This document shows, piece by piece, positions 1,850-17,014 of a stretch of DNA of 64,000 nt. Source of the DNA: a virus; UHGV virus genome UHGV-0311442. One strand, written 5' to 3'. The position numbers and the translations under genes are program-made. The first letter of the stretch is position 1; each line of letters opens with the position of its first letter. The notes under the pieces are model-generated. The model saw nothing but the letters and a program-made list of their open reading frames with translations, did no database searches and was not told the origin of the DNA.

Positions 1850-1887
1850 GACAGGCTGCCTGCGGGCAGTTGTGTGTCCGTAGGTAA

Positions 1888-1925
1888 CCCCTCCCTGTAA
1901 TGGGGAGGGGTATCCATTTTATTTA
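1888..1925 (+). terminator. Rho-independent terminator
   Basis: GC stem cccctccc / gggagggg with 7-nt loop followed by T-rich tract; lies between stop at 1849 and RBS aggag at 1931. Confidence 0.55.
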
Positions 1926-1943
1926 AAAGTAGGAGTCTTTACG

Positions 1944-4900
1944 ATGCCGAGAGAAGACGCGGCGCAGTTTAACGGTACGCTAAGCACAGCGACGTACCCT
2001 AACCGATTTAACGTGGTCATTCCGCCTGAAGGACCTTTTTATCGTATCGGATTAAAACTCACAGTAGCCGACGATACCGCGCCTAACGGACGTCGTACTC
2101 TGATTGAGGGGTTGGACTACTATTTAGGCTATTACTTTAAAGAACTCGCAGAAGCTGAGCAAGATCAGATTTACGGCGGGTTCATGTTGCTGACCGCAAC
2201 AGAAATCGAATATGAGATTTTAGGGGTAGCACGCCAGTATCGTGTACCACAATCTGAAATCGGAAAGTTCTTAGTTCGTACTGACCTGAAAGACCCACGT
2301 AACGTGGACTGGTCAGAGTTAATGGCGTATGCGCCAGTTATTCAACCCATCGATCCTCCTGCTAACTTAGAAGAAGCTATTCTGAGGGATGAGGTTGTTA
2401 AAGCGTTAAACGATATCCGTAAGAAAATCGTTCAACGTTCAACAGAGTTAGATGCAGCGTTTACCGAAGTCACTAACCTGATTTACGAGAACGGTAAAAA
2501 GGTTTTCGACGAGGAGTTATACCAACACCACCTTAATCCTAACGCACACCAGTATACGACCACTGATGTTGGTGCCCTTCCGGTTTTGGGACGTGCTGTC
2601 GACGCTACAAAAGCGTTTGGACTGACGATTGACGAATTGGCTACGCTGATGGGTTCGGCGGGTATTGAGCAATCAGACGTTGATCAGTTAATGGGTGAAG
2701 CCCTTGGTACCGTTTACGGTCGTTGGGGTAGCACAAACGGTAACGAGCTGACGTTTAAAACCGCAGGCGGACACATCATCAGTATCCGTGGTGATAAGTG
2801 GTTAATTACCTCACCGCAACCGTTGGTGATTAAAGCAGACCAGGACAACAACGAATCGGGTTTGGCGGTTGAATTTAGTGCGGGACTGAATACGCTTTGG
2901 GTGCACTCTGGGACAGAACAGGATGTATTAGCGCCGGTTTACAACTCTGTGTATTTGGTTACACCAGAAATGGTGAACATGTACCTGACGTCTGTAACGT
3001 TACTTGAAGCAAATGCCTATTTCAAACCATCAGACAGCGTAAAACCATACGGTACAGCGAAGCAGTCTAATCCGCTAACGTTGAACGCGAATATTCCCAC
3101 AGCAACCGAGTCGGTTTATGGGGTGTTTTCGATTACGAATATCGCAACCTCCGTAGCACTAGGCACTGCTATTTCCCAAAAGGCGGTGACCGAATTAAAA
3201 GACCGGTTAGACTTGTACGTTGACGATGACTACACGGTTAACGGTAAAGGGTTTGTTAAGACAGGCGATAAAATGGTGTTAACCTTAACGAAAACCGATT
3301 TCGGTATCGATAAGATGGATAACACCATGCCGATCGCTAAACCGGTAACAAAAGCGTTAGCGAATGTGCTGAAAAATAAAAGTGTGAAGGAGCACACGCA
3401 CACTACCGCCGATTTGGATAATGTCCCGATTGGTAGTGCGACTGTAGATGGTATTTTACAGTTGTGGGATGCGATTGATGCCACGAATGATAAAGCCGTC
3501 ACGTCTCGTCAAGGGTGGTTGTTCGCAAAAGAGATCAAGAAGGTTTCCGATAAACTGAATACCATCTTACCTGCGTGGACTGTCGGTGGGGCGAAGTTCG
3601 GTAACAAAAACTTCTTACCCATTCCGGCACTCGGTAATTATTCAGGTTTTACAAAGAACCAGTCCTATCAGAAAGGCGTTGTAGGATATCAACAAGGTAA
3701 AGTTTATTCGTTACGTAATGCTTCTAATGGTGTACCTGGTACAGAGGCTATTTATTACGGTTATGCTGATATCAATACGTCGAATGCATTTGAGAACCCT
3801 CAGCAAACTTCGGTGAAATACCATCCTGCTGGGATGAGTAAATATCCTGGAGTGACCTTAAAAGCTATTTTGATCGGTGGTCAGGAAGCGATTATTTGTC
3901 TGGGTTCTGACAATAACCGTTATCTGGTCTTGTTCAATGGCTCGATGGACCACAGTAAGCACACAGTGGTGTGCCGTGTTACAATGCCGAATTATCGCGA
4001 TAATAGTCCCACTGGTTCAAACGAGATTCCGTGGAATCCTCGGCCAGAATCTGACGATGTTGTTCTGGTTGACGACCACGTTTACCTTCTTCGCTCCACG
4101 GTAAATAACGCTGCTTATGCCGTGGCGGCATGGCGTTTACGTAAAGCCGATTTGTCTACTAATGTTGCGTTAGAATTTGAACGTGTAACGTTAAATGGTG
4201 AAATGGGACAATTCGGAGATAACCTCTGCCTAAGAATTGGCCAGAAGACCGAAGAGTCGCAGACTGGTCAATTCTTCACGTATTACCCACCCGAGGCACG
4301 GGCTAAATGGACAATCGGTCACAACTTTGTCCATGGTCCAGAATGTAACCATGCTTGTGCGGTGCGTGACAGTGTGATTCGTGTGAATCATGTACCCACT
4401 GTGTGGTTTGCGGCTGCCGACGGTTCGACGATTAATTTCCGTCAATGGTCAACAAGTTTCACAATCGATACGTTAACGGGTAGAGTTACGTTGGAGGGTG
4501 CCGAACGTTTCCCCATTAAGGCTGATACTACCACACTGACGTTCGCGGATGGTTCAACTGTAGAAACCAGTCGTAAGTGGGGCGGTGGTCAAGCAAACAA
4601 TCGTTGTTTTGCAACGTATGCTAAACCTAACGGCACCGGAATGATGCTTTCCTGTTGGCAGGTTAACGATGCGGACCAGATGCCGAATGTTTCTATTAAA
4701 GGAACGCAAGGCAAAGAGTTTTTCGATTATTTGCGTTACGATAACCCGAACAATACCTCAGGCGAAGGAACGTTTACTTGGGATAAAGGCCGTGGTTCTA
4801 TCTATACCATCGGTCTTTCTCATCCTGTCGGTATCGGTGGTTCGAATAAGGTTTGGCTATCCAATCCACGCAACCGTTATACGATCGAAGTAGAAGTTGA

Positions 4901-7127
4901 CCCAAGTAAACCTTATGACGTTCCTGGATATAGCGGTTATGGCCCGAACAACAACCGTCGAGAAGTTGATGCAACCCTTTACGAACAGTTAAGCTGTATG
5001 GCTGCTTGCATGACTCCAGAGGAGCGTCACGGCCAGTTAAACGGTTGGTATTTGACGAAAGCGGAAACCTTCCCATATCGAAACATCTACGGTAACTTTG
5101 CCCTGTCATCAGAACGGCTGACGTTAGAGGAAGCGGATCGCCAGAAGATGATTAGGATGATTGTCGATGGTGCACCATCTGGTCAGGCAAACGGTTACGC
5201 GAACGAGCGCATCAGCGCAGCACACCAAAGCGGTAACGCGTTGTTTGCGCTCTGGTTGCTAGGCATTAACACTGTTTGTGAGTTCGACTTATTACAAGTC
5301 TCATGCATGAAAATCTTGAGTAACGGACGTCGAGTTCTCGACATCTATTATTTCATGGTGAGTCCGACTAAAGAAAACGGTTATCTACGTTTTAACTCGG
5401 CTACTTTCAAACTCGTTGATTGGTTCTTAGACCTTGATTACGGCTTAAGTTATCAGTCTCTGAGGGAAGAAGCGGGTAATAAAACGCGACGTGTAGGCCA
5501 GCCAATTTTTGCTTCTGCCGACGGTGTAAACTTCGGTCTATGGCTACCTTATACGCTGACAATACGGAATATCGGGGACCTAAATGCTTTGGGTTACGCT
5601 GCGAAGTATACCTTCGACCCTGGGTCGGGTTGGACTCGCGTTCCCGGTAAGTCACAATTGCGTCGGATGGCCCCTGCTCATAATCCCGAAACAGGCTGCT
5701 ACATGGGTGCGGGTAATTGGGACAAGATGGCACTAATTTTCTCTAAAGCAGATCGTGTCTTCTGTTCAGGTAACGCATATACAGCCGAAGAGTTCGTTAA
5801 TGACACCAGATTCACAACTGGGGGACAGGCGGTTATTATCGCTGGTGTGGAAACTGCCGAAGGTTGGATTCTATATTTGACGGAAGAGGTCAGGTTAGAT
5901 TTCGGTAGTAATAGCTATACATTACCGACGTGGTTGGTGGATTTAAGCAATGAATTCCCAGAAAACCATGCTAACCAGACGTTCTATGTTCATGCTGCTC
6001 TTGTAGGTTCGAAAGCTCAATATCAGATCGGTCTGGAAAAGCTGCCGGATACGAGTTCGCGATTATTTGTTGGTACAGTTACAACCGATAAAAAGCGCAT
6101 AGTTGCTATTAACATCGATAAAGTGAAACGGTTAGGCAGGGTTCGTGAATTAGAAGAACACGCTGCTGTTAGAGATCAGCACGACGTTGCAGCGGCGTAC
6201 GATCGAAAAACGGGTCCACTCCAAACCTTGGTTAACCAACCGCTGAAAGCCCCCACGGCATCTGCGGGCAAGGGTGCAGGGTATGCCGATGGTCAGAGAT
6301 GGAATGCGTTGACCGGGATCACAACACGTCCCAAACTGCCGATACAGGAAACCTACGCAGGTTATAAAAGTATCGGTAGAGTAGCGTATGAGAACTGCGC
6401 TGATCAGTTCTGGCAGAAAGCGGTCGCTGCAAACGTTGCAGCGGCTACTGCGTCTGAGAACAGTCAAGCGGCAGCCGCGAACATGAAGTGGTTGGGCGCG
6501 TATACGAAACCGACTACAGGTGCGAATGCATATCTGGCGCTGAGTCTGCGTGTTAAAGTGCCTGGTAATCCCGGCACCGCTAATCGTAGACTAAAAATCA
6601 GGCTTGCGGCTCCGACAGGTATAACCCAAGTTCGTTACGGGTTAAACCAGTCTGGTGGCACGATGACTGAACAGACAGTAACGTTAACTGCTAACAGTTA
6701 TCTGGAAAAAGAACACGCCGGATTTAAGCCAGCCGAAGAAGTCCGTGTACATGCTACGTTTGTCATTCCAAAAAATGAATACGATAGCTACCGTACGAAG
6801 TTCGGTGCTGTTCAGCTGATTGACGTTGAGTCGAACACTGTCATTAAACAGACAGATATCGACACACCGTTTATCGTGTATACCGACACGGAGTTAGCAG
6901 CGCAATCTGGTTTGGTGTATAAAGCGGTTAAGGGTCAGTTCCATCAACTCCCGTCTCAACCTGTCGTCATTGTAACTGATGGACAGACAGGGACTACGCC
7001 ACCGGTGAAAACCTCGTTTGCTGACGGGACATTAACGGTCTACGTGGCAACCACGTACGATGCGGTTAACCCAGCACAAACCCGCGATATCGATAAGCTC
7101 CAGTTCAATCTTATGTTTACATCTTAA
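1944..7127 (+). CDS. Giant (1727 aa) tail fibre / virion structural protein
   Basis: Uninterrupted 5.2-kb ORF with RBS aggag 8 nt upstream of ATG; sits directly upstream of fibre genes; no catalytic motif recognised. Confidence 0.8.
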   Translation: MPREDAAQFNGTLSTATYPNRFNVVIPPEGPFYRIGLKLTVADDTAPNGRRTLIEGLDYYLGYYFKELAEAEQDQIYGGFMLLTATEIEYEILGVARQYRVPQSEIGKFLVRTDLKDPRNVDWSELMAYAPVIQPIDPPANLEEAILRDEVVKALNDIRKKIVQRSTELDAAFTEVTNLIYENGKKVFDEELYQHHLNPNAHQYTTTDVGALPVLGRAVDATKAFGLTIDELATLMGSAGIEQSDVDQLMGEALGTVYGRWGSTNGNELTFKTAGGHIISIRGDKWLITSPQPLVIKADQDNNESGLAVEFSAGLNTLWVHSGTEQDVLAPVYNSVYLVTPEMVNMYLTSVTLLEANAYFKPSDSVKPYGTAKQSNPLTLNANIPTATESVYGVFSITNIATSVALGTAISQKAVTELKDRLDLYVDDDYTVNGKGFVKTGDKMVLTLTKTDFGIDKMDNTMPIAKPVTKALANVLKNKSVKEHTHTTADLDNVPIGSATVDGILQLWDAIDATNDKAVTSRQGWLFAKEIKKVSDKLNTILPAWTVGGAKFGNKNFLPIPALGNYSGFTKNQSYQKGVVGYQQGKVYSLRNASNGVPGTEAIYYGYADINTSNAFENPQQTSVKYHPAGMSKYPGVTLKAILIGGQEAIICLGSDNNRYLVLFNGSMDHSKHTVVCRVTMPNYRDNSPTGSNEIPWNPRPESDDVVLVDDHVYLLRSTVNNAAYAVAAWRLRKADLSTNVALEFERVTLNGEMGQFGDNLCLRIGQKTEESQTGQFFTYYPPEARAKWTIGHNFVHGPECNHACAVRDSVIRVNHVPTVWFAAADGSTINFRQWSTSFTIDTLTGRVTLEGAERFPIKADTTTLTFADGSTVETSRKWGGGQANNRCFATYAKPNGTGMMLSCWQVNDADQMPNVSIKGTQGKEFFDYLRYDNPNNTSGEGTFTWDKGRGSIYTIGLSHPVGIGGSNKVWLSNPRNRYTIEVEVDPSKPYDVPGYSGYGPNNNRREVDATLYEQLSCMAACMTPEERHGQLNGWYLTKAETFPYRNIYGNFALSSERLTLEEADRQKMIRMIVDGAPSGQANGYANERISAAHQSGNALFALWLLGINTVCEFDLLQVSCMKILSNGRRVLDIYYFMVSPTKENGYLRFNSATFKLVDWFLDLDYGLSYQSLREEAGNKTRRVGQPIFASADGVNFGLWLPYTLTIRNIGDLNALGYAAKYTFDPGSGWTRVPGKSQLRRMAPAHNPETGCYMGAGNWDKMALIFSKADRVFCSGNAYTAEEFVNDTRFTTGGQAVIIAGVETAEGWILYLTEEVRLDFGSNSYTLPTWLVDLSNEFPENHANQTFYVHAALVGSKAQYQIGLEKLPDTSSRLFVGTVTTDKKRIVAINIDKVKRLGRVRELEEHAAVRDQHDVAAAYDRKTGPLQTLVNQPLKAPTASAGKGAGYADGQRWNALTGITTRPKLPIQETYAGYKSIGRVAYENCADQFWQKAVAANVAAATASENSQAAAANMKWLGAYTKPTTGANAYLALSLRVKVPGNPGTANRRLKIRLAAPTGITQVRYGLNQSGGTMTEQTVTLTANSYLEKEHAGFKPAEEVRVHATFVIPKNEYDSYRTKFGAVQLIDVESNTVIKQTDIDTPFIVYTDTELAAQSGLVYKAVKGQFHQLPSQPVVIVTDGQTGTTPPVKTSFADGTLTVYVATTYDAVNPAQTRDIDKLQFNLMFTS

Positions 7128-7167: not shown

Positions 7168-8367
7168 ATGGCCTCCATTGTATATCAGTACCCTTTAGAT
7201 TTAACGGGAACCCTAACCTCTAACGCCGTGGAGCGTCAGGTTACGTTAGGTACAGGTAAAGTTAACCGTGCGTTTGCTTTTCCTGACGGACCGTTTTATG
7301 CTGATACGTTCCGCTTGCGGGTTGCCAATCGACCCGACGCGACGTATGAACGCGGAACGGACTATGAGTTGATTTTTGCACACCCGGGTTACGAGAAATT
7401 GACGAAGAACCGGGAAGTGGTAATGGCGGTTGTTGTAACGAACACCGCGATTCCGACCGATATCACGGTATCGGCGCAAGTAGTCGGTGGTCCGCAGTCT
7501 GCAAACGTGACTGCGATAGAACAGGCGATTGCCGAGTTGAATCTCGATAATCGAACTGTTGGCTTTAAAGACTTGCGAAATGTGCCGGACACGTTTCCTT
7601 CGGCACCAACGTATAAAGACGTCGGCGATATTTACGGCTTCGAATATATCATTACAGTGCTCGCTGGCATCAAAGATGCGATAACGGCGGGTGATGCTGT
7701 ACAGCTTGAGAACATCAAAGCGATTCTCGAAAGCCTGAAAAACGATTTCCTGGACGCGCTGAACGCGCACATTAACGCCACGGGTAATGTCCACCATCTG
7801 GATATTCATCAGGTTAACGGGTTAACAGAAACGGAGATCCGTGCACTTATCCGTGACGTACAATCTGCCATCGATGCAACCATTACTGATATTAATGCGT
7901 TGAAGAAAGCAGACGAAGCGTTAGGAAAACGTATTGATGCTGTTGTCAAATCTTTGGAAGCGTGGAACGACCAACTTAACATCGTTGCCCAAAACTACCA
8001 GAAGATGGCATTGGCATTGGCGAACCTAAATTCGCTAGTGTTACAGTTACAGAAAAATATCAACGATCTGAACACCAAACTCAACCAAGCGATTCAGCGC
8101 ATTGCTGCGTTAGAACAACGGGGTAATGAGTCCGATCAGAAAATTGATAATCTGCAACAAAACCTGGATGCGCTTAAACAACAGGTTGCGAATAACACGA
8201 ACGCAATCAGTCAGGCGAATCAGAACCTACAAAACCATATTGCGGCGGATAACCCGCACACAGGTTATCTCCACAAGAAATACGGCGGTGTGGTTCAGGC
8301 TCCAGTGCACGTTAACGCTAACTTGACGTCCCGTGATGACGTTCAGGCAGAAGCGGGTACGAAATAA
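7168..8367 (+). CDS. Coiled-coil fibre protein (fibritin / tail-fibre-like)
   Basis: RBS aaggagag then ATG at 7168 (ORF-track start 7060 lies inside the upstream gene); C-terminal half is heptad-rich, Q/N/L coiled coil. Confidence 0.75.
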   Translation: MASIVYQYPLDLTGTLTSNAVERQVTLGTGKVNRAFAFPDGPFYADTFRLRVANRPDATYERGTDYELIFAHPGYEKLTKNREVVMAVVVTNTAIPTDITVSAQVVGGPQSANVTAIEQAIAELNLDNRTVGFKDLRNVPDTFPSAPTYKDVGDIYGFEYIITVLAGIKDAITAGDAVQLENIKAILESLKNDFLDALNAHINATGNVHHLDIHQVNGLTETEIRALIRDVQSAIDATITDINALKKADEALGKRIDAVVKSLEAWNDQLNIVAQNYQKMALALANLNSLVLQLQKNINDLNTKLNQAIQRIAALEQRGNESDQKIDNLQQNLDALKQQVANNTNAISQANQNLQNHIAADNPHTGYLHKKYGGVVQAPVHVNANLTSRDDVQAEAGTK

Positions 8368-8376
8368 CTTTATTAC

Positions 8377-8422
8377 AGGAGGAACTATGCTTATGGGCGT
8401 AGTCCTCCATTCTTTTTTATTT
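8377..8422 (+). terminator. Rho-independent terminator separating the fibre genes from the Cys-rich peptide genes
   Basis: Stem ggaggaactatgc / gcgtagtcctcc followed by ttcttttttatttt. Confidence 0.6.
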
Positions 8423-8434
8423 TAAGGATACGTG

Positions 8435-8830
8435 ATGGCGATCAGTGTTAAAAATGTACGTGACCGAATCACCAACGTAGAGAACCAAATGGCAACTGGC
8501 CCACGTGTTGATCCGCAAGTTGCGTCGAAAGCACATAATGCCGCCGACACTTTTTCGGGTTGGACGCCAAGTCGGTTAGACTGCGGGGGAAGCTGTAGCT
8601 GGACGTGCTCAAACGGTTGTACGCATGGCTGTACGAGTTGTTCGGGCACCTGTACGTCGGTGTGTGTAGGTAGCTGCTCCTCTGCGTGCGGTAACCAGTG
8701 TACTGGATGTAGTTCAACGTGTTCTGGTGGCTGTTCAGGTTGCAGTGGGACCTGTGGAGGTGCTTGCTCGGGCCGTTGTTCTACGGGTTGTTCTGGTGCT
8801 TGCTCCGGTGGCTGTTCTGGCCCAACCTAA
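8435..8830 (+). CDS. Cys-rich repeat peptide 1 (~131 aa, ~26 Cys in CxxxC / CxxC repeats of C-S/T/G); candidate RiPP precursor or crosslinked structural protein
   Basis: RBS aagga 6 nt upstream of ATG; N-terminal ~50 aa leader-like and Cys-free, then the motif Y/L-D-C-G-G-S-C-S-W-T-C-S begins the Cys repeat core. Confidence 0.75.
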   Translation: MAISVKNVRDRITNVENQMATGPRVDPQVASKAHNAADTFSGWTPSRLDCGGSCSWTCSNGCTHGCTSCSGTCTSVCVGSCSSACGNQCTGCSSTCSGGCSGCSGTCGGACSGRCSTGCSGACSGGCSGPT

Positions 8831-8840
8831 GAGGTGAAAA

Positions 8841-9239
8841 ATGGCAATTGGATTACCTGCGCTACAAGCGCGGCTAAATAACATTGACAACACTGCATTG
8901 AAGAATACGGGTGCAGTACAAAACTATATTCGTGGGAAAGCGACGAACAACGCAGACCTATTCGGTGGGCAAGCTCGCAACCACTATGACTGCGGGGGAA
9001 GCTGTAGCTGGACCTGTTCGAGCTGTTCTGGTGGTTGTACAGGGAACGCATCAGGCGGCTGTGGCTCTTCCTGTTCTGCAAACTGTGTATCAGGTTGTAG
9101 CGCGGGCTGTAGTGGATGTTCGAATACCTGTTCTGGTGGCTGCTCAGGAAGCTGTACGGGGAGTTGTTCTAACTCGTGTGTAGGAAACTGTTCTGCAGGC
9201 TGCTCTGGTGCTTGCTCCGGTGGCTGTTCTGGGAGGTAA
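8841..9239 (+). CDS. Cys-rich repeat peptide 2 (132 aa), paralog of peptide 1
   Basis: RBS gaggtg; shares the YDCGGSCSWTCS motif and a 29-bp identical 3' DNA segment (GCSGACSGGCSG) with peptide 1. Confidence 0.75.
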   Translation: MAIGLPALQARLNNIDNTALKNTGAVQNYIRGKATNNADLFGGQARNHYDCGGSCSWTCSSCSGGCTGNASGGCGSSCSANCVSGCSAGCSGCSNTCSGGCSGSCTGSCSNSCVGNCSAGCSGACSGGCSGR

Positions 9240-9241
9240 TT

Positions 9242-9448
9242 GTGATTAGCCTTAAGAACCTTCGTGATCGGTTAGTAACAGCGGAAGGGTATATTACGAC
9301 CGCTAACGCAAACAACTATATTGCAAACCAGGGCACCGTGTCTTCAACCAATAACCTTGCCGGTTTACCTTTAAGCCATTATAACTGTAACGGCGGATGT
9401 AGCTGGTCGTGCAGTGGTAGCTGTAGTAAAGGTGCGGGGGGAAGGTAA
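9242..9448 (+). CDS. Cys-rich peptide 3 (68 aa, GTG start), short paralog with 4 Cys
   Basis: RBS gggagg 5 nt upstream of GTG 9242; N-terminus ISLKNLRDRL parallels peptide 1 (ISVKNVRDRI); core YNCNGGCSWSCSGSCS. Confidence 0.6.
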   Translation: MISLKNLRDRLVTAEGYITTANANNYIANQGTVSSTNNLAGLPLSHYNCNGGCSWSCSGSCSKGAGGR

Positions 9449-9597
9449 CTAAGCCCTCCAGTGGTAGTATGTCTATTACGCAATAACCGAGTTAATCGTA
9501 CGGGTTTACTACTGAGTTTCAAGTTACCGGTAGGCAATGGTGCGGTGGTTTCTATACCCTGAATGTCCGTTTGACCGTGAAATAATTGGAGCAATCA

Positions 9598-10485
9598 ATG
9601 AAGAATGATTTACATTTAGCGTACAAAACAATTTTCAATCATCCACTTCACATTTCTTCCCCTGATTCCGTACGTGCACACTTAGCAGATGAAGTTCGTC
9701 TGTTGACTCAGTTGCCGGGCGAATGGCCTAAAGTGCGCGGACGTTTCTTTACCGATCGTAAAAACTATCGTGTGGAAAATACGTTTAAGATTCGTGATCT
9801 GACGGCAGAAAGTGTAGTGGTCTTTACCGGTGACTCCGAGTTGCGTGGTAAACTGGTTGCGGGTAAATATTTCTTTAGTGACGGGATTTTGAATAACTCC
9901 GTAGATATGGAATTGTTCTTTACCCCATTTGAAGAAATGGGCGCAAAACCAGTTGCCCGTCGTTGGTGGTCGCCGGATTACTTAGGCTCGTTCCCGTATT
10001 TCTTTACCCTGGTAACACCAGAAACGAAGAACTATTTCGATACGGAATCGTATATCGAAATTGAAGGGTACGAAGCGTTAGGGATTAATTGCTTAGCGGA
10101 TTTAATGGCGTATAGCTATAAGTTCGTGTGGGATCGTGAACGTTCCGTGTGGGTTGCCCTGACGGATGAACACGAAATTACAAAACGCATCCGTAAGCCT
10201 TGGATGCAGCATTTGATTCAAACGCGTATTGGCGAGCATCCGTCAACAGAAGCGGATCTGGCAAAACTCGTTAGTTTCTTAATGACGAAAGTCACGTTAA
10301 CTGACGAAGAGAAAGCAGCAGTGTCGGCGGTGTTGGACCGTAACGTAACGTTAGCGGATTTAGAACGTTTAAATGTCCGTTATAAAGACCTTAATCGTAT
10401 TTTGGAAGCGTATAACTCTCCATTCTTGTTAACCCCTGGTGCTAACGTAGACGACGATCCTTTGTTCGCCATTGATTATATTTAA
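9598..10485 (+). CDS. Hypothetical protein inside the Cys-peptide / radical-SAM cluster (possible accessory or recognition factor)
   Basis: ORF with RBS ggag 6 nt upstream of ATG 9598 (ORF-track TTG at 9586 overlaps the RBS). Confidence 0.65.
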   Translation: MKNDLHLAYKTIFNHPLHISSPDSVRAHLADEVRLLTQLPGEWPKVRGRFFTDRKNYRVENTFKIRDLTAESVVVFTGDSELRGKLVAGKYFFSDGILNNSVDMELFFTPFEEMGAKPVARRWWSPDYLGSFPYFFTLVTPETKNYFDTESYIEIEGYEALGINCLADLMAYSYKFVWDRERSVWVALTDEHEITKRIRKPWMQHLIQTRIGEHPSTEADLAKLVSFLMTKVTLTDEEKAAVSAVLDRNVTLADLERLNVRYKDLNRILEAYNSPFLLTPGANVDDDPLFAIDYI

Positions 10486-10506
10486 AAACGACCGGAGTCA
10501 CCTGCA

Positions 10507-11430
10507 ATGACAACCAATGCAGAACCAAGGTTATCGAATCGTTTATACGATAAACCCACCGTATTGTCCGTAGTCGCTACGTCCAAGTGTAACCTGGATT
10601 GTAGCTTCTGCGGTGGAGCCTATTACATGAATCGTGAAGATTCTCCGCGAGAGTTTCAACGTGAGCGAATTTTGGAAGCGCTGGAAGCTAATCCAACCAT
10701 TACCGAAATTCAGTGGACGGGTGGTGAGCCATTACTGGCAACCCGTAAAATTGAGGCGTTTGTTGACGAATTAAAAGTGATTCGTCCAGAACTCAAACAC
10801 CAGTTGTATACCAATGGCTTAAAGATGCGTAAATCGCATCTCCCGTTGCTAAAACAGTTTGACAATGTCTACGTTAGCATCGATGGGTTTAAGTCGTCTG
10901 AGCGCCCGTTTATGCGCTTTATTGACGAAGGCTGTTACGAAGCACTGGAAACGATCTACGAGCTGGATAATGTCCAGACTTGGGGTGTCCTGACACGGGA
11001 CCGTTTAGGGGACAAACGCTGGCACGAAGATATTATTCAGCTGCACAGCGCGATTTACCATTACGGTTTCCGTGCAATGACGTTACTCTTAGATGCGAAA
11101 ATGCCAAAACCTTTATCGCCTGACCACGTCATGAACTTTATTTACGGCTACTATCAGGTTCAGGACAACATTGAACGTCTGAATGTAGTAAATGGACGTG
11201 AATGTGGCTTTACGGTAAGTAAAGTGTTTGAAGAAGGGTGTAACGTTTGCAGCGAAAGTCTTTGGATTAATGCAGACGGTGGTGAGCACCAACTCCAGAA
11301 TGCACCTAACGTTCTGGAATCGGGATGTAACCAACTGGCCTTCTCTATCGGTGTAGAGGCGTACGAATATATTCGTCGCGTAGTGATGGCAGGACGTAAT
11401 AGAGGGGCGGCAAATGAGCCAAGCAAATGA
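10507..11430 (+). CDS. Radical SAM enzyme (CxxxCxxC), candidate peptide-modifying maturase
   Basis: N-terminal CNLDCSFCGG cluster; GGEPLL SAM-binding motif; YTNG and SIDG motifs; four C-terminal Cys (possible twitch-like auxiliary cluster). Confidence 0.8.
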   Translation: MTTNAEPRLSNRLYDKPTVLSVVATSKCNLDCSFCGGAYYMNREDSPREFQRERILEALEANPTITEIQWTGGEPLLATRKIEAFVDELKVIRPELKHQLYTNGLKMRKSHLPLLKQFDNVYVSIDGFKSSERPFMRFIDEGCYEALETIYELDNVQTWGVLTRDRLGDKRWHEDIIQLHSAIYHYGFRAMTLLLDAKMPKPLSPDHVMNFIYGYYQVQDNIERLNVVNGRECGFTVSKVFEEGCNVCSESLWINADGGEHQLQNAPNVLESGCNQLAFSIGVEAYEYIRRVVMAGRNRGAANEPSK

Positions 11431-12736
11431 ATTCCCTAAGCAGTTAACGTATCAGATCGTAACCAACCTTTCGTGTAACCTGGACTGCGAATATTGTTAC
11501 GAACGTAAGTACCCGCGTAACAACAAAGCGGCCGACATTGTTGATTTCTTACACGCCTGTTTTGAACGTGATAAAAACGAACCGAATGTTGAAGTTATTA
11601 TCGACATTATCGGCGGTGAACCGTTCATGCAGCCTAAGTTGCTGCTGGCAGCGTTTGAAACCGCAGAGCAGTTGTGTAAAGAACACAACCGTCCGTTTAT
11701 GTTTAGTATCTCCACGAACGGGACCTTGTTAGATCGTCCGTTGAACCGTGAGATTGTAGAACGTTGGAAAGACAAACTTTCGGTTGGGGTTTCGATTGAT
11801 GGCTTGCCTGAGTCCCATGACCGTTATCGTATCTTCACAACAACGCGCCAGGGTTCTTACGAAGCCGCAGTACGTGGCTATAATTACTTAAAAGAGGTTG
11901 GCATTGCAGAACTCGGCGTAAAAGCGACCTTTACGTTAGAAACACTGCCGTTCTATGCTGCAGGGATGAAGTCATTAATTGACATTACTGGCGGTGGGAC
12001 AATTTCTGGGAACGTAACCTTCGAAGACGTTATGCCACGTAGCATGGCGACGTCAATCGCTTTACAGATGATGGATGTGATAGATTATTGGGTTGAGAAA
12101 GGATTACACACCAACCCACGTAATATCTTATCGCACATCATTCCAGAAGGGTTGGATTTCGATACGATTTGGGAACCGAACTGGCGTGACCAGTTACTGT
12201 ATAATGACACCGTACGGTTGAACCCAGAACGTTTACGTCCGTTCTGTGGGACGTTAACGCACATGACGTGCTTAGGATTTGACCGTAAGATCTTTGGCTG
12301 TAACCGCTTTATGTCAACGGTAACGTCGCGTTCTGCGGTGTTTGAGTTGGTAGGTCGGGAATTCGTCAGTCTGGACAACGGTAAATTGTTAGAAGAGATT
12401 CAAACGCAATATACCAACTACCCAGAGACCTGTTTAGGTTGTCCGATGAAACACGCTTGTGGTAGCTGTGCGGCGGCTTCTTACGAGAACGGGGAAGGAA
12501 CGTTAGAAGACCGTAAAGCGTATCACGCTGAACGTCGTCAGTGTGGCTGGACGACAGCGAAACTGATGGTGGCGGAATACTGGAAACAGAAGATGGGTAC
12601 GACGTCAGCAAAAGCGTTCCACGACACGAGCATGTGTTATTGCCCACGCTGTGTTCGTGAACGTGCCCAAAAGGAAAAATTATTAAGAGAAGCCAAAGAT
12701 GAAACCAATTCTGATCAACAATATTACGAAGCGTAG
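11414..12736 (+). CDS. Radical SAM enzyme with SPASM-like C-terminal domain, candidate peptide maturase
   Basis: CNLDCEYCY cluster; GGEPFM; STNGTLL; SIDGLPESHDRYR (SxDGxxxxHDxxR as in PqqE/anSME/AlbA-type enzymes); C-terminal CLGCPMKHACGSC plus further Cys; start overlaps upstream rSAM gene by 17 nt. Confidence 0.85.
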   Translation: MSQANEFPKQLTYQIVTNLSCNLDCEYCYERKYPRNNKAADIVDFLHACFERDKNEPNVEVIIDIIGGEPFMQPKLLLAAFETAEQLCKEHNRPFMFSISTNGTLLDRPLNREIVERWKDKLSVGVSIDGLPESHDRYRIFTTTRQGSYEAAVRGYNYLKEVGIAELGVKATFTLETLPFYAAGMKSLIDITGGGTISGNVTFEDVMPRSMATSIALQMMDVIDYWVEKGLHTNPRNILSHIIPEGLDFDTIWEPNWRDQLLYNDTVRLNPERLRPFCGTLTHMTCLGFDRKIFGCNRFMSTVTSRSAVFELVGREFVSLDNGKLLEEIQTQYTNYPETCLGCPMKHACGSCAAASYENGEGTLEDRKAYHAERRQCGWTTAKLMVAEYWKQKMGTTSAKAFHDTSMCYCPRCVRERAQKEKLLREAKDETNSDQQYYEA

Positions 12737-13271
12737 AATTCGACTTCTGGATAAGTTTCTGGAAAACAGTAAGCTATTCGGTTGTTATGTGGTGATTAAC
12801 GGTGAAGATTTTACCGATGACGTAAAACGCTTACTGATTCGTCACGGTGTGACTGTAATCATCCCAATGTACTGCACCGAACTTACTGACCTGTCGGTCG
12901 CGGAAATTGAAAAACGTAACCCAGGGTTTGAAGAACGGGTATTGGATTTCCCACGTCACAAAATTGCGTTTCTACGCCGCTCTTTAAGCGAACCCAGCGC
13001 AGAATCTATCACTGTGTTGGCATTGTCCTTCCCCGGCATTACTATCTTCGCAACACGTAACCCGAACTCACCGATTGATGGGTTTTACGATGAGCGAGAG
13101 AAATTTAATACCGTGATTTTTCCTGAGCTAACGCCAGAAGAATGCCAGGGTATCCGTATCGATTGGGAATCGGACTTCGACACAAGATTCCGTCATATCG
13201 ATTTTGAACTGTTAATCGAATTAGGGTTGATTAAAGGAGACGATGAATGTCTGCTACTGGTGAAGGCTTAA
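12699..13271 (+). CDS. Hypothetical protein (cluster-associated)
   Basis: ORF overlapping the 3' end of the rSAM gene; same operon. Confidence 0.55.
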   Translation: MKPILINNITKRRIRLLDKFLENSKLFGCYVVINGEDFTDDVKRLLIRHGVTVIIPMYCTELTDLSVAEIEKRNPGFEERVLDFPRHKIAFLRRSLSEPSAESITVLALSFPGITIFATRNPNSPIDGFYDEREKFNTVIFPELTPEECQGIRIDWESDFDTRFRHIDFELLIELGLIKGDDECLLLVKA

Positions 13272-13918
13272 CGAAAGAAGAAATCCGTCGCCGTTATTTT
13301 GCGCACGATTTACCGATTGACCGTCATGGTAACTACATGGAGAAAATCGGTAGTGAAGATCACGGCCGTACAGGGTTTTGTGCGTTACTGCACTATAAGT
13401 TGATTGATGGGATGTCTGATCGCGAAGCATTGGAACAAATGCGTAACTACGACATGTCTGAAATCGAAGCACGGTTTACGCTACAGAAAGCGAAAGACTT
13501 TGTTAACGACACGTTGGGGATTGACCTGGAAGAAATTCGTGCAGGTTTACGTTCCACGGTGCGGTACATCTTTACCGATGTTCAGAAAATTCTAAGCGCT
13601 CTGGAATTCCGTTATCAGGATGCGCGCTATGCTGAGATTCAGGTAGGTGATTTCACTTTCCAGGCAGATGAGAAGTCACAGGTAGCACTGAGTCGTTATA
13701 TCCAGTCAGAAACTGCGCCAGCGTATTGGTTAACGGCTAACAACACCCGTATCGAACCGTTTACGTTAGAACAGTGCAAGACGTTGCTGGCAGCAATCGT
13801 TGAGCGCGATCAAAGACTACACCACGCAATGTCTGAGCAGAAAAGAGAAGTCAGAGCTTGGGCTGAAGCACGTGATTACGATTCAATTAAAGCGTTTGCG
13901 TTAGAGCAAGGGCTGTAA
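13247..13918 (+). CDS. Hypothetical protein (cluster-associated)
   Basis: RBS aaggaga 6 nt upstream of ATG; last gene before the bidirectional terminator. Confidence 0.65.
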   Translation: MSATGEGLTKEEIRRRYFAHDLPIDRHGNYMEKIGSEDHGRTGFCALLHYKLIDGMSDREALEQMRNYDMSEIEARFTLQKAKDFVNDTLGIDLEEIRAGLRSTVRYIFTDVQKILSALEFRYQDARYAEIQVGDFTFQADEKSQVALSRYIQSETAPAYWLTANNTRIEPFTLEQCKTLLAAIVERDQRLHHAMSEQKREVRAWAEARDYDSIKAFALEQGL

Positions 13919-13939
13919 TCGACAGCGAAAAAAAATAGT

Positions 13940-13981
13940 ATACCTACCTCCTATTACGGGAGGTAGGTATTTTTATTTTTT
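13940..13981. terminator. Bidirectional rho-independent terminator between convergent genes
   Basis: Perfect 12-bp stem atacctacctcc / ggaggtaggtat flanked by an A-run upstream and a T-run downstream. Confidence 0.65.
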
Positions 13982-13982
13982 C

Positions 13983-14513
13983 TTAGGACGTAAAACCGTC
14001 CAGCTCACCGTTGGTGGTGGCCAGGTCAATACGATTATCAACAACTTTCGGCGTAATTACGAAAGTTGCCATTACACCTGGTTTATAACGGAGGTTCTTT
14101 TCAGTAACGGTGCACGTTACCGTACGCAGAGTGACGTTTTCATGTTCGTCTTTCTGGTCTTCGGTGTTGTACACAACGTCGCCTGGTGCGATAGCATCGT
14201 TCGGTTTAACTTTATTGATGTAATATTGTAACCAAGCGCGCAGTTCATTTTCTTGAACCCAGCGAGACAGATCGTCAGTTAGTTCAATACGGCCTACAAC
14301 ACCCGGTTCCAGACGATCGTAATGCAGTTCGATTGCACCTTTGAAATTCTCAGAACCTGGTAGTGCAGTCATGGTAACTTTGGTATTCTTACCTTCGCCT
14401 TCCAGCGCAGTAGGGAGACCAAAGGACACTTCTTTATCAGTTACCTGATGTGGTAGCTCAGTGTTAGCAGCATTATAAAGCGCGACCAACATCATCTGGT
14501 TAGTAGCGGCCAT
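13983..14513 (-). CDS. Paralog family A protein (176 aa), probable fibre-associated virion protein
   Basis: Tandem paralog of 14579..15109; both share architecture and C-terminal GELDGFT. Confidence 0.7.
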   Translation of the reverse strand: MAATNQMMLVALYNAANTELPHQVTDKEVSFGLPTALEGEGKNTKVTMTALPGSENFKGAIELHYDRLEPGVVGRIELTDDLSRWVQENELRAWLQYYINKVKPNDAIAPGDVVYNTEDQKDEHENVTLRTVTCTVTEKNLRYKPGVMATFVITPKVVDNRIDLATTNGELDGFTS

Positions 14514-14578: not shown

Positions 14579-15109
14579 TTATTCTTTAGGAGACGGTGCG
14601 GTGAAGCCATCCAGTTCACCTTCCAAACCGCTCAGTGCTACTTTCTCAGGAGCCGGAGGAGTAACTTTATACGTCGCGACAGTACCAGGCAGGAACTTCA
14701 AGTGGCCAGCCACAACCGTTACCACGTAAATGGTTTTGCCTTCTTCTTCACGAGAAATAGTTTGCAGGTCGTTTTCACCGAACTCGTCATCGGTGTACCC
14801 TTTCTCAGCCATGGCTGCGTTAACTTTCGCCAGGATCTTCGTTGGTGAATCGAAATCGGTAGTAGGTGCAGTTACTTCAACTTCACCAACGATGTCGCAG
14901 GAAAGACGAGTATAGTGGAATTCTTTCTCGCCTTTGAAGTTCTGGCTTTCTGCCTTGGCGGTCAGAGTAATTTTAGTGTTGCGGCCAGCTTCTCCGGTGA
15001 ACTCAGCGACAGCACTAAAATTAACATCATTTACAGTCAACTTAGAAGCAGTTTGGTTGTTTTTAGCAATTACAATCTCGATAAGCTGCTGTTGAAAAGT
15101 TTTAGCCAT
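14579..15109 (-). CDS. Paralog family A protein (176 aa)
   Basis: Paralog of 13983..14513. Confidence 0.7.
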   Translation of the reverse strand: MAKTFQQQLIEIVIAKNNQTASKLTVNDVNFSAVAEFTGEAGRNTKITLTAKAESQNFKGEKEFHYTRLSCDIVGEVEVTAPTTDFDSPTKILAKVNAAMAEKGYTDDEFGENDLQTISREEEGKTIYVVTVVAGHLKFLPGTVATYKVTPPAPEKVALSGLEGELDGFTAPSPKE

Positions 15110-15248: not shown

Positions 15249-15728
15249 ATGCTAAAACGTTTTCTACTTGTTGTAACTGCAGCACTTTCGTTGGCAAGCT
15301 GTGCCCTACAACCCACCGCTAACGGTCAATTCTCGACTGTACCCGTAGAGCCACACGACATGGTTATTTACACCTGTATGGGTGTTGAGCAAGATTTTGC
15401 AAATTACAAACCTGTCGTCAGTTCGACTAACCTAATGTTAGGTTCAGTAACTGTAGTCGATACTGGTGCTAACTGGGTAGCCACTTGGCCAAACGGTAAG
15501 ATTGAATCACCACAACTTTATAAAGATCTATTAGGTAAAGTTAATGGGAATATCGATCCTATCACGGGACAACGTTACTACCGTGTAAATGGACTACTTT
15601 CAAAAACGCCAACATTTGCGTATTCTACTTTAGAATATAAAACGGGCGATGGTAAAGGCATTACTTTCTTCCACTGTAAGGAAGGTGTAGCTCCTGACAG
15701 TGGAACAATGCTCCATCCTGCGGAATAA
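15249..15728 (+). CDS. Predicted lipoprotein (159 aa), moron-like gene on the opposite strand
   Basis: Signal peptide MLKRFLLVVTAALSLASC with lipobox L-A-S-C; RBS gaagggtg; own terminator downstream; only plus-strand gene within the minus-strand block. Confidence 0.7.
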   Translation: MLKRFLLVVTAALSLASCALQPTANGQFSTVPVEPHDMVIYTCMGVEQDFANYKPVVSSTNLMLGSVTVVDTGANWVATWPNGKIESPQLYKDLLGKVNGNIDPITGQRYYRVNGLLSKTPTFAYSTLEYKTGDGKGITFFHCKEGVAPDSGTMLHPAE

Positions 15729-15846: not shown

Positions 15847-16362
15847 TTAAATCTCGACTAAAGCGCTCCAATCGATTGGTTTTTGCTTAACCACTTTCAC
15901 AGTACCACGATTTGGTGACCAGAAAGTAATGTTAGGTTGATTACGAACGTCGATGTGTAACCAGCTGATGTCACATTCAATAAAGTGAATGAACGGAAAC
16001 TCATCAGGGTTAGCAGCGATATAGTCGTGAACCTGTTTTACGGTGCTATCCAACAACGTTGCATCAATTGCGTTACCGAATTTGTGTTGACTTCCTGAAT
16101 CGGCGTAAAGCTGTAACGCACGTTGTTTATAACTACCGCCCTTAGGCTTTTCTTGATTAATAAAGAAATCTAAAGTTCTTAGTCCGCGTTGTTGCGCAGC
16201 GGTTGAGTTAATCACCATTCTACCGAAACGGTTACGAATCTGTTGCAGTGAAATCATTAGCAACGGGTTCATAAACCGGATTGCAGAATCGCCGTATTTG
16301 GCAATATAAGACTGTGGTACTAACTCTCTGAGTTTAAAATTACTCGGATTTGGATGAAACAT
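15847..16362 (-). CDS. Peptidase M15-family cell-wall hydrolase (L-Ala-D-Glu / D-Ala-D-Ala peptidase-like)
   Basis: SQHKFGNAID (H-x3-G-x-A-x-D zinc-ligand motif) and downstream WLHIDV histidine, as in T5-type endolysins and VanY-like enzymes. Confidence 0.6.
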   Translation of the reverse strand: MFHPNPSNFKLRELVPQSYIAKYGDSAIRFMNPLLMISLQQIRNRFGRMVINSTAAQQRGLRTLDFFINQEKPKGGSYKQRALQLYADSGSQHKFGNAIDATLLDSTVKQVHDYIAANPDEFPFIHFIECDISWLHIDVRNQPNITFWSPNRGTVKVVKQKPIDWSALVEI

Positions 16363-17014
16363 CTTCCCTCCCAGACAGAAAAGCGCGTTTGATGTTCAGG
16401 TATTTGACATTAACGGGCTGATCTGTGGTGATATCAATACGTTCGTGGTCAGGGATTGCAGGTTCCTTAAACTCGCGAACGAATAAATAGTTTCGATTAT
16501 AATCTAACGTACGAAACGCGTTAGTGTTGTAGGATGGCTTTGCATTAGGATCTACGTAGGAATCCCAGCCGAATTCAACGACGGCCTTATAAAATGTTTG
16601 GCAGATATAAGGTGAGATTTCCAACGACTGCATAATACGCAGGAACGTTAAATCAGAGAACTCTTTATCGATAATACGCGAAACGTTACCACCCGGTGTC
16701 ATGGGATAGCTACGCTCCGTGTTACATTTTTGATAGAGTAGGTCGTGAATGCAGGCCGCAGGTGCCCACGGTCCGTCAGGATGGAAAATTCCCTGGAGGT
16801 GTTCAGGAATTGACGCTAAATCGGTAACGAACCCTTTCGGTGCTGTTAACCACAGTTGCGTGTCAGGCAATACACCCGTTAAATAAACCGCACGGTCTAA
16901 GTGTACGTGGTCGTGATAAATCTCACGTAACGTAAACGGATAATGGTAATCCTCCGTTAATACAAACCACTTATTGTCTAAACGTTTATATTGAAACTTC
17001 TCCATTACCCACAC
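16340..17014 (-). CDS. Hypothetical protein; TDLASIP...HDLLY motifs are reminiscent of DUF1353-type proteins
   Basis: ORF; probable ATG at 17005 with RBS ggaagg upstream. Confidence 0.6.
   Translation of the reverse strand: MWVMEKFQYKRLDNKWFVLTEDYHYPFTLREIYHDHVHLDRAVYLTGVLPDTQLWLTAPKGFVTDLASIPEHLQGIFHPDGPWAPAACIHDLLYQKCNTERSYPMTPGGNVSRIIDKEFSDLTFLRIMQSLEISPYICQTFYKAVVEFGWDSYVDPNAKPSYNTNAFRTLDYNRNYLFVREFKEPAIPDHERIDITTDQPVNVKYLNIKRAFLSGREDVSSKSE

Follow-up and report, generated by a model that had tools for sequence, protein, structure and literature searches.

Here we describe a gene cassette in the virus genome UHGV-0311442, of which a stretch of 64,000 nt was used as query (the window; cassette coordinates are window positions). 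Positions 8378-13970 hold a single compact operon on the plus strand with a hairpin terminator at each end, in which three genes for Cys-repeat proteins (pepA, pepB, and pepC) precede an accessory gene (unk295), two overlapping genes for radical S-adenosylmethionine (SAM) enzymes (rSAM1 and rSAM2), unk190, and a gene for a DUF4376 protein (Table 1). A sequence-only reading of the window had taken these genes for a phage-encoded maturation system of the kind that acts on peptides made by ribosomes and modified after translation (RiPPs). The pairing of a poly-Cys protein with a radical-SAM/SPASM maturase, on which that proposal was built, is supported by the family placement and the linkage presented below. 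With moderate confidence, we interpret the cassette as a module for maturing the tip of a tail fibre, in which radical-SAM enzymes would introduce cross-links, probably thioethers, and not as a source of a secreted RiPP.

Table 1. Features of the cassette and of the genes upstream of it, in window coordinates.
Feature	Position	Strand	Description
tail/baseplate context gene	1944..7127	+	1727-aa large baseplate/tail-fibre protein, SPN3US gp168 homologue by synteny with SPN3US_0168; outside the cassette core
fibre-like virion protein, ~400 aa	7162..8367	+	SPN3US gp167 homologue; start GTG 7162 or ATG 7168
5' hairpin + U-run	8378..8422 (hairpin 8378-8408)	+	intrinsic-terminator-like, between fibre gene and pepA
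pepA	8435-8830	+	131 aa, 21 Cys; open reading frame (ORF) with Shine-Dalgarno
pepB	8841-9239	+	132 aa, 20 Cys; pepA paralogue
pepC	9242-9448	+	68 aa, GTG start, 4 Cys
unk295	9598-10485	+	295 aa, phrog_8030
rSAM1	10507-11430	+	307 aa, small radical-SAM enzyme
rSAM2	11414-12736	+	440 aa, SPASM-type radical-SAM enzyme (predicted); 17-nt overlap with rSAM1
unk190	12699-13271	+	190 aa, phrog_7988; 38-nt overlap with rSAM2
DUF4376 protein	13247-13918	+	223 aa, PF14301
bidirectional intrinsic terminator	13940..13981 (13940-13970)	.	13-bp stem, T-runs on both strands

The operon and its Cys-repeat genes

The two terminators that the sequence-only reading placed around the operon were both recovered. 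Together with its U-run, the 5' hairpin folded at -20.8 kcal/mol (z = -4.4), and none of 200 shuffled sequences folded as well; it was this comparison that detected the hairpin, which a simple terminator scan did not pick up. The bidirectional terminator at the 3' end closes both the operon and a convergent minus-strand gene. The overlaps between successive genes from rSAM1 onward (17, 38, and 25 nt) point to coupled translation; the first of these values confirms the noted overlap of the two radical-SAM genes, and unk190 is probably translationally coupled because of the second. The placement directly downstream of fibre genes also held, since the upstream genes encode homologues of gp167 and gp168 of the Salmonella jumbo phage SPN3US, which are virion proteins by mass spectrometry (MS). 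The product of the nearer gene matches phrog_2163 (virion structural protein) at 9.5e-103 and has coiled-coil-type matches as well; of its two possible starts, the GTG is used for the equivalent gene in the closest relative of the window (IMGVR_UViG_3300045988_078609; L025). The spacer between pepC and unk295 (9449-9597) is 150 nt long here versus 22-23 nt in SPN3US and L025. It contains no ORF, no Rfam match, and no unusual fold (z = 0.42), and no Rfam family matched anywhere in 8300-14100.

The three peptides had been described as about 130 aa long with about 26 Cys each. There are indeed three genes, and the length applies to pepA and pepB (131 and 132 aa); pepC is short (68 aa), and the Cys counts are 21, 20, and 4. 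pepA consists of an N-terminal segment (~49 residues) and, after it, a (C-x3)n domain with all 21 Cys that begins DCGGSCSWTCS, and with 17 Cys spacings of 4 and 3 spacings of 3 the dominant pattern is a run of Cys-x-x-x repeats. The corresponding junction in pepB reads NNADLFGGQARNHYDCGGSCSWTCS. In pepC, the best conserved of the three, an N-terminal module like that of pepA and pepB is joined to a core with just four Cys, NCNGGCSWSCSGSC. The cores consist almost entirely of Cys, Gly, Ser, and Thr. All three proteins match phrog_6085 (pepA 1.5e-40, pepB 2.5e-39, pepC 2.3e-24), and two of them come close to TIGR04114, for which pepB with 19.4 bits and pepA with 14.5 bits are borderline and below the cut-off of 20 bits, while pepC gave no match. 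PF27846.1 is listed in precomputed annotations for many pepB homologues (P0172-P0200); its name and description could not be read, and it may describe the Cys-repeat domain. None of the three proteins has a signal peptide, and their sequences lack a CxPxR motif; anaerobic sulfatase maturases target C/S-x-P-x-R.

The cassette region shares ~72% DNA identity with SPN3US and its relatives, and by synteny the operon corresponds to SPN3US genes 161-167 and the region to SPN3US_0161 to 0168. Its closest relatives are uncultured: one is a protein of 99% identity that stems from assemblies of sequencing runs, the other an IMG/VR contig of 224.8 kb at 93%. The cassette is conserved in Seoulvirus, Derbicusvirus, Wellingtonvirus, and other SPN3US-like Erwinia phages, and all SPN3US-like loci examined keep the three Cys ORFs, among them those of SPN3US, Erwinia phage pEa_SNUABM_29, CR5, Phobos, and Kwan. 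Each of the three genes has a Shine-Dalgarno sequence ahead of it, and for each the amino-acid identity exceeds the nucleotide identity (90% versus 74% for pepC compared with SPN3US). The ratio of nonsynonymous to synonymous substitution rates (dN/dS) was 0.035-0.15 for pepA, the one gene for which it is given, dS being saturated in most comparisons. Taking together the Shine-Dalgarno sequences, the conservation in relatives, the excess of amino-acid identity, and the low dN/dS, we can conclude that pepA, pepB, and pepC are real genes under purifying selection, and not chance ORFs. Since we found no DNA tandem repeat under the protein repeats, the Cys periodicity is maintained at the protein level.

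In several deposited genomes the real Cys-repeat genes are missing or misannotated (L001 6950-7979, which is SPN3US; L002 6952-7974; L004 4136-5172; L005 4142-5167; L006 4115-5172). SPN3US_0166, for instance, is an out-of-frame ORF over the real pepB, and antisense ORFs were annotated over the Cys genes in others (pEa_SNUABM_29_00267/00268, CR5_157, PHOBOS_167/168, Kwan gp183). Several frames are open in these genes because of their Cys/Gly/Ser codon bias. In Salmonella phage SPFM14 (L007, LR535912.1; 10302-11047) and the SPFM1/5-10/14/15/20 records the cassette appears locally scrambled: the Cys ORFs read as block-shuffled SPN3US versions, rSAM and unk295 score high yet match only in short pieces, and the DNA match spans 42 nt only. 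This looks like a sequence or deposit artefact.

Family placement of the radical-SAM enzymes

Both enzymes passed PF04055 (gathering threshold 29.5 bits), rSAM1 with 53.0 bits and rSAM2 with 57.0 bits. The sequence-only reading had ascribed one set of motifs to both of them. This stands for rSAM1 as far as CxxxCxxC (C28-x3-C32-x2-C35) and GGEP are concerned; the SIDGxxxxHDxYR motif and the CxxCx5CxxC cluster are present in rSAM2 only. At the C-terminus of rSAM1 we found a pair or triad of Cys residues (C245, (C248), C274), with two or three conserved, that is twitch-like at best. In rSAM2, the cluster motif C21-x3-C25-x2-C28 is invariant, and across 17 diverse homologues so are C286, C296, C340, C343, C349, C352, and C377, with C278 nearly so. 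As criterion for SPASM we used the seven-Cys pattern Cx9-15Gx4C ... Cx2Cx5Cx3C ... C for two auxiliary 4Fe-4S clusters. The stretch C340-x2-C343-x5-C349-x2-C352 of rSAM2 is in register with the CteB motif; its last spacing is x2 versus the x3 of SPASM, and there was no match to SPASM in Pfam. Past the SPASM region, rSAM2 of the jumbo-phage clade has an extra C-terminal CxCxxC motif, which reads MCYCPRC in the window (12640-12670, residues ~410-420) and CNCYQC, CQCPNC, or CNCAKC in relatives. Prophage homologues are without this motif, which may be an additional metal site.

Among the NCBIfam models, rSAM2 matched PapB best (NF047865; 1.2e-33, 116.8 bits versus a cut-off of 340) and then TIGR04115 (6.5e-33, 114.7 bits versus a cut-off of 350), where residues 10-371 aligned with positions 3-345 of the 359 in the model; geopeptide, HxsB, QhpD, SCIFF, and anSME models came after these. 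The best solved relative of rSAM2 was CteB (5wgg; 5.8e-14), with anSME next. For rSAM1 it was SkfB, a thioether-forming twitch enzyme (3e-6), and the matches of rSAM1 to curated families were limited to the N-terminal core. On the SCIFF, CcpM, and sactisynthase models rSAM2 scored 59.6, 56.8, and 50.9 bits, and rSAM1 reached 30.9 bits on SkfB, which leaves both enzymes below the cut-offs of SCIFF (TIGR03974, 425), CcpM (TIGR04068, 500), SkfB (TIGR04403, 300), and RumMC (NF035951, 720). The anaerobic sulfatase maturase model TIGR03942 gave 59.2 bits versus a cut-off of 349. Models of non-peptide enzymes aligned with the N-terminal core of rSAM1 only (QueE 35.5 bits versus a cut-off of 260, NrdG2 33.9 versus 131, MoaA 43.7 versus 284, viperin 38.9 versus 180), and overall the QueE, NrdG, MoaA, viperin, and anSME models yielded 30-60 bits versus cut-offs of 130-350.

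Because all scores are far under the cut-offs, rSAM2 is a member of no curated family. Its motifs and matches mark it as a predicted SPASM-type radical-SAM peptide maturase, and its 114.7 bits versus the TIGR04115 cut-off of 350 place it in a clade separate from that family. A confident fall of either enzyme into a non-peptide family had been named beforehand as evidence against peptide maturation. No such assignment emerged, and the best matches of rSAM2 are peptide maturases (PapB, TIGR04115, and CteB). In agreement with the earlier statement that queuosine or ribonucleotide-reductase partners are lacking, no such genes are annotated within ~8 kb in SPN3US. An identity as the defence protein viperin was considered as well and rejected, as the PADLOC pVip matches covered the first half of the model only, which is the generic radical-SAM core.

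The two enzymes are also joined in nature, since the metagenomic protein P0109 (668 aa) is a fusion of a small rSAM domain with a SPASM rSAM, which supports the idea that they work together. Loci differ in how many rSAM genes they have, according to the number or the type of their Cys-repeat substrates, with three copies in locus L011 and four to five in L092. In L025, an extra small rSAM of 303 aa that is 61% identical to rSAM1 lies between pepA and pepB (3576-4487); it is absent from the window. Many NCBI assemblies labelled 'Salmonella enterica' or 'E. coli' (P0012, P0015-P0037) hold ~240-kb contigs with this rSAM gene, which points to genomes of SPN3US-like jumbo phages that entered these bacterial deposits either from a carrier state or as contaminants.

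Linkage of enzyme and repeat, and fusion of the repeat to tail fibres

Linkage was scored in the 80 viral loci retrieved by a profile of rSAM2 homologues, with a repeat ORF defined as one having at least 6 Cys spaced 2-3 residues apart. A repeat ORF stands beside the rSAM2 relative in 76 of them, always on the strand of the enzyme, at a median distance of ~1 kb and in 65 cases upstream. The Cys-Cys spacing in these ORFs was 4 in 2230 cases and 3 in 298. The window itself fits this picture, with pepA-C located 1.1-2.1 kb upstream of rSAM2 on the same strand and no repeat ORF in its 64 kb outside pepA and pepB. As negative control we took the matches of a bacterial genome scan, which are mostly other SPASM families with N-terminal similarity only; a repeat ORF was present in just one of these 68 bacterial loci. 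In addition, the N-terminal part of pepC matched 50 phage records, all of them in groups that carry rSAM2. The two gene sets were found together in every related jumbo-phage genus checked and in unrelated prophages too, so the co-occurrence that had been put forward as a check of the sequence-only reading was observed. The rSAM cluster of Campylobacter phage CP220 was examined as a candidate for the same system and set aside as a different one: it has amidinotransferase- and glycosyltransferase-like neighbours and no CXXX ORF.

Two types of cassette could be distinguished. Type A, to which the window belongs, combines the Cys-repeat module with an accessory protein, a small twitch-like rSAM, and a SPASM rSAM; type B, common in metagenomic phage contigs, has just one rSAM, of the SPASM kind, together with a Cys-repeat protein that is 150-390 aa long and contains up to 65 Cys. 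Every two-rSAM locus pairs a small rSAM with the large one, and in each of them a hidden Markov model (HMM) of the unk295 family found exactly one match, the ORF immediately upstream of the rSAMs; it found none in single-rSAM loci. Among the type B enzymes, that of L029 is a true TIGR04115 member (430.9 bits) and that of L041 comes near the threshold (309.2 bits; its cassette is placed after baseplate-wedge genes), each beside a CXXX-repeat protein that scores 31-34 bits on TIGR04114. Repeats of other forms also occur near related enzymes: CNCNYSCTC-type repeats in two proteins with four rSAMs (L092, 3493-4715), fibres ending CSDCSDCSDYCSDDHC beside related rSAM genes (L014, 818-2392 and 5804-5962), and a 97-aa protein ending GCESCAMGCHGPQ beside a related rSAM (L027, 5871-6176). 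The rSAM/Cys-repeat principle may thus extend past strict CXXX.

The connection with tail fibres came from distant rSAM2 homologues (33-40% identity) in prophages, where they are located directly downstream of a fibre gene. In a Deferribacter abyssi prophage, the order is a lambda-type GpJ tip protein, a 302-aa fibre, a 250-aa protein, a small rSAM, and a SPASM rSAM. The fibre has HxH...YYTETE repeats and an end that reads 'GGQAGSYYRCSDCSWTCSSSC...', and its last 100 residues include '...NADQLGGQAGSYYRCSDCSWTCSSSCTGSC...'. A P2-like prophage of Campylobacter pinnipediorum is organized as baseplate J, I, a 384-aa fibre, a 250-aa protein, two rSAMs, DUF1353, sheath, and tube, so that a DUF1353 gene lies downstream of its rSAM pair. 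This fibre matches PF12571 (1.8e-40) and tail-fibre PHROGs down to ~1e-55, ends in the Cys-repeat tail 'GCNGCSGSCSGSCSSGCTACSGCSGSCSG...', and is followed by an accessory protein that occupies the position of the gpG chaperone. The same fibre-then-cassette arrangement recurs in metagenomic loci with three rSAMs (L011, whose fibre shares the HxH repeats), with a P2-type fibre (L013), or with an additional DUF4376 gene downstream of the rSAM pair (L012). In L026, the junction 'LGGQPPDFYTCGGSCSWSC' is part of a 568-aa protein (ATG start). Of the two fibres of L014, one ends in a short Cys-rich ORF and the other is followed by one, and each has its own rSAM after it. The L012 contig, a phage sequence of 170 kb with a type A cassette, also has, a few kb upstream (1234-3502), two genes for S-AdoMet lyases (PF23780), a curious neighbourhood for SAM-consuming enzymes.

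A junction motif, L-x-G-Q-x4-Y-x-C-x-G-x-C-S-W-T/S-C, is common to pepA-C, to the fibres of other phages, and to many homologues of 120-230 aa with longer N-terminal parts, two of which have a weak tail-fibre PHROG match. Furthermore, phrog_6085 aligns to the C-terminal parts of longer fibre proteins, including the region that matches the N-terminal segment of pepA-C. This indicates that what might be taken for a leader in pepA-C corresponds to an internal segment of the fibre shaft. Whether the architecture is that of a myovirus, P2-like, or lambda-like, the cassette keeps its place within the block of genes for fibres and fibre assembly.

The C-terminal half of unk295 is homologous to the Deferribacter 250-aa protein (3e-10), and its family is small, with 44 cluster representatives among 1.84 billion proteins; we propose that unk295 is a substrate-presenting or fibre-assembly helper. 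The two genes after rSAM2 had both been listed as unknowns. This still describes unk190, the homologue of SPN3US_0162 that lies outside the conserved core beyond the jumbo phages, and no longer the other gene, which carries DUF4376 (PF14301 at 4.8e-11), belongs to phrog_8169, and has a weak match to the tail-fibre phrog_1807. Its product is likely a fibre-assembly-type protein, judging from these matches. Scans with curated families, Pfam, and PHROGs revealed no protease, exporter, or immunity genes in the operon.

Interpretation and alternatives

On the reading we favour, pepA-C would be detached versions of a C-terminal fibre module that consists of a short helical shaft-like segment, the junction, and a Cys-x-x-x run. 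In the infected cell, unk295, whose gene has the position of a fibre-assembly chaperone, would bind and present this module, and rSAM2 and rSAM1 would use SAM-derived radicals to convert its Cys thiols into carbon-sulfur (thioether-type) cross-links along the repeats. The product would be a compact domain resisting reduction and proteases that forms, or docks onto, the distal end of gp167/gp168-type fibres, with jumbo phages supplying the module as separate small subunits. How the work is divided between the two enzymes, and whether the domain enters the virion, are parts of this picture that we infer. The sequence-only reading had left the choice between a virion or fibre component and a secreted modified peptide. 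The fibre is favoured because the module is fused to fibre C-termini elsewhere and no protease or exporter was found; the secreted peptide lost ground accordingly.

This scheme has several known counterparts. Most similar is the TIGR04115/TIGR04114/TIGR04117 system, in which, as in the window, a SPASM enzyme is encoded beside a Cys-x-x-x-repeat protein; its loci are without the second small rSAM and the 295-aa-type accessory protein, both of which the window has. This pairing was reportedly curated in NCBIfam from comparative genomics alone. PapB (freyrasin) and CteB (SCIFF), the SPASM enzymes nearest to rSAM2, form Cys thioethers in repeated Cys motifs, PapB by joining Cys to Asp or Glu in CX3D motifs. 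The distance to both is large (116.8 versus 340 bits for PapB, 59.6 versus 425 for SCIFF), and unlike PapB and CteB, the window-type systems have substrates with 20-65 Cys that are part of, or homologous to, structural fibre proteins. In QhpD/QhpC, a SPASM enzyme puts several Cys thioethers into a subunit that is retained in a larger complex and not released. The QhpD model (TIGR03906) matches rSAM2 at 9.8e-17 (60.7 bits versus 453), whereas its substrate and context are unrelated and the window has no quinone cofactor genes. The HxsB/HxsC system resembles the window in having a short-period repeat and a pair of a large SPASM and a small rSAM enzyme (rSAM2-HxsB 3.7e-21, rSAM1-HxsC 5e-10); it differs in score (75 versus 370 and 39 versus 268 bits) and in its repeat, which is HXS and not CXXX, and HxsA and HxsD homologues are missing from the window. 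With respect to gene order, the cassette loci resemble P2 gpH/gpG and T4 gp37/gp38/gp57A, where a fibre is followed by a helper in the chaperone position and more assembly genes, and the HxH repeats of the Deferribacter and L011 fibres recall metal-binding fibre shafts. We know of no fibre tip made of CXXX repeats or needing radical-SAM enzymes.

Several observations weigh against the fibre-tip interpretation. That the Cys repeats are modified at all is a prediction, and rSAM2 stays far under every curated family threshold, so that transferring the chemistry to it is an analogy. The cores of pepA-C contain no Asp or Glu, the acceptors that PapB uses. An AlphaFold2 (AF2) model of pepB from a 23-sequence alignment reached a mean confidence (pLDDT) of 49.5, with N-terminal helices only and no usable model of the Cys domain; for unk295 no recognisable fold was obtained, and neither a RiPP recognition element (RRE) nor a chaperone fold was found in it. 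The module of the jumbo phages is a small protein of its own, like classical RiPP precursors, and the bacterial locus L101 has three CXXX peptides of 59-70 aa that resemble ordinary ones. Finally, pepA-C have never been detected in virions. The relevant data are MS analyses of SPN3US particles from wild type and from the tailless mutant 64_112(am27) (PMC5694885), which assign gp167-170 to the tail-associated virion proteins. There, gp168 is a tail virion protein that is missing from the tailless particles, gp167 was detected in virions without a head annotation in the proteome table, and gp161-gp165 were undetected, as expected for assembly enzymes. The absence of pepA-C says little because the real ORFs are missing from the annotation that would have supplied the search database.

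Some of these points would suit a genuine phage RiPP, in which pepA-C are precursors with their N-terminal ~50 residues as leader, and the modified cores never enter the virion but are freed at lysis to serve as a toxin, a signal, a metal chelator, or an anti-defence factor. Small size, a conserved N-terminal part joined to a core of hypervariable length, enzymes that are closest to RiPP maturases, the L101 peptides near a related enzyme, and the lack of pep proteins in the reported SPN3US proteome all agree with it. We nevertheless regard it as unlikely: genes for a leader peptidase, an exporter, or immunity are missing from the cassette, the supposed leader is homologous to internal shaft segments of fibres that bear a like Cys tail, the position in the fibre block persists across three virion architectures, and the proteome is uninformative for misannotated ORFs. 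The RiPP label of the sequence-only reading, in the sense of a leader-cleaved and released product, is not supported: small precursor-like proteins are present, and searches for a peptidase, an exporter, or an RRE-like fold found none. Cleaved C-terminal chaperone domains are known in endosialidase and T5 fibres. The Cys module sits at the same extreme fibre C-terminus, adjoins DUF4376 and chaperone-position genes, and is unreported in virions, and it might be a temporary assembly device, either intramolecular-chaperone-like or a metal-templated trimerisation tag, that the rSAMs process or remove once the fibre has folded. We think this quite improbable, as the searches turned up no protease domain, a disposable tag would hardly justify one to four dedicated radical-SAM enzymes, and a long and variable repeat with up to 65 Cys is a better fit to a structural rod.

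Lowest in our estimation, and very improbable, is the view that the Cys proteins bind metal or iron-sulfur clusters, as metallothionein- or scaffold-type proteins, while the rSAMs act on a fibre residue, a sugar, or a nucleotide. A high Cys density with no predicted fold, the Fe-S clusters that radical-SAM enzymes require, and core matches of a generic kind to the viperin, MoaA, and QueE models would be in keeping with this. Yet the non-peptide families are far under their cut-offs and match the N-terminal core only, strict CXXX periodicity is the curated signature of the radical-SAM targets TIGR04114/04117, and such binders would account neither for the linkage in viral loci compared with controls nor for the fibre fusions; moreover, the CP220 cluster, which has no CXXX ORF, illustrates that such systems are distinguishable. 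Returning to the fibre-tip interpretation, we put at about even the chance that it holds generally, that is, that the fibres of many phages (SPN3US-like jumbo phages of Salmonella, Erwinia, and Cronobacter, P2- and lambda-like prophages, and mainly metagenomic contigs) end in a Cys-x-x-x domain that is cross-linked in the host cell by dedicated radical-SAM enzymes.

That SPASM enzymes pair with CXXX-repeat proteins is known from NCBIfam, and to this the window adds a separate clade, a second enzyme, and a fold-less accessory protein. In the literature we found no description of the cassette, of the TIGR04115 system, or of radical-SAM enzymes tied to tail fibres, and the tail-fibre link of CXXX/radical-SAM systems appears to be new. 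If it is true, a virion structural protein would for the first time be known to mature by radical-SAM chemistry, and a new covalent virion chemistry would stand beside the HK97 isopeptide chainmail, in that part of the particle on which host range depends. Disulfides do not form in the reducing cytoplasm, and thioethers would explain how a heavily cross-linked extracellular domain is built there. Much of the uncharacterised 'CXXX-repeat RiPP' family would then be phage receptor-binding hardware. Other rSAM clusters in phage structural modules might be explained in the same way, such as the eight in Aeromonas phage 332-Vera, in the publication on which radical-SAM genes in phage structural clusters were called 'highly unusual'. 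For enzymology, the cassette offers a large substrate class that is genetically tractable through the SPN3US amber-mutant system, in a family so far without known product. The annotation errors in SPN3US, CR5, phiEaH2-like, and other genomes, where the genes are missing or were called in another frame or on the opposite strand, are likely why virion proteomics has been blind to them. Fibres hardened against proteases and reduction, together with their maturation enzymes, would also be relevant to engineered therapeutic phages and tailocins.

The minus-strand genes that converge on the cassette terminator (13983-14513 and 14579-15109) form a tandem pair whose 176-aa products are paralogues of SPN3US gp160, which is very abundant in virions, was assigned to the head, and was estimated at >300 copies. 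At this position SPN3US has one gp160-type copy, an Erwinia relative three, and the window two. Three ORFs lie past them, at 15249-15728 (+), 15847-16362 (-), and 16340-17014 (-), which encode a lipoprotein-like product (signal sequence ...LSLASC), a homologue of a protein annotated in Phobos as peptidase M15A, and a protein annotated in SPN3US as tail assembly chaperone.

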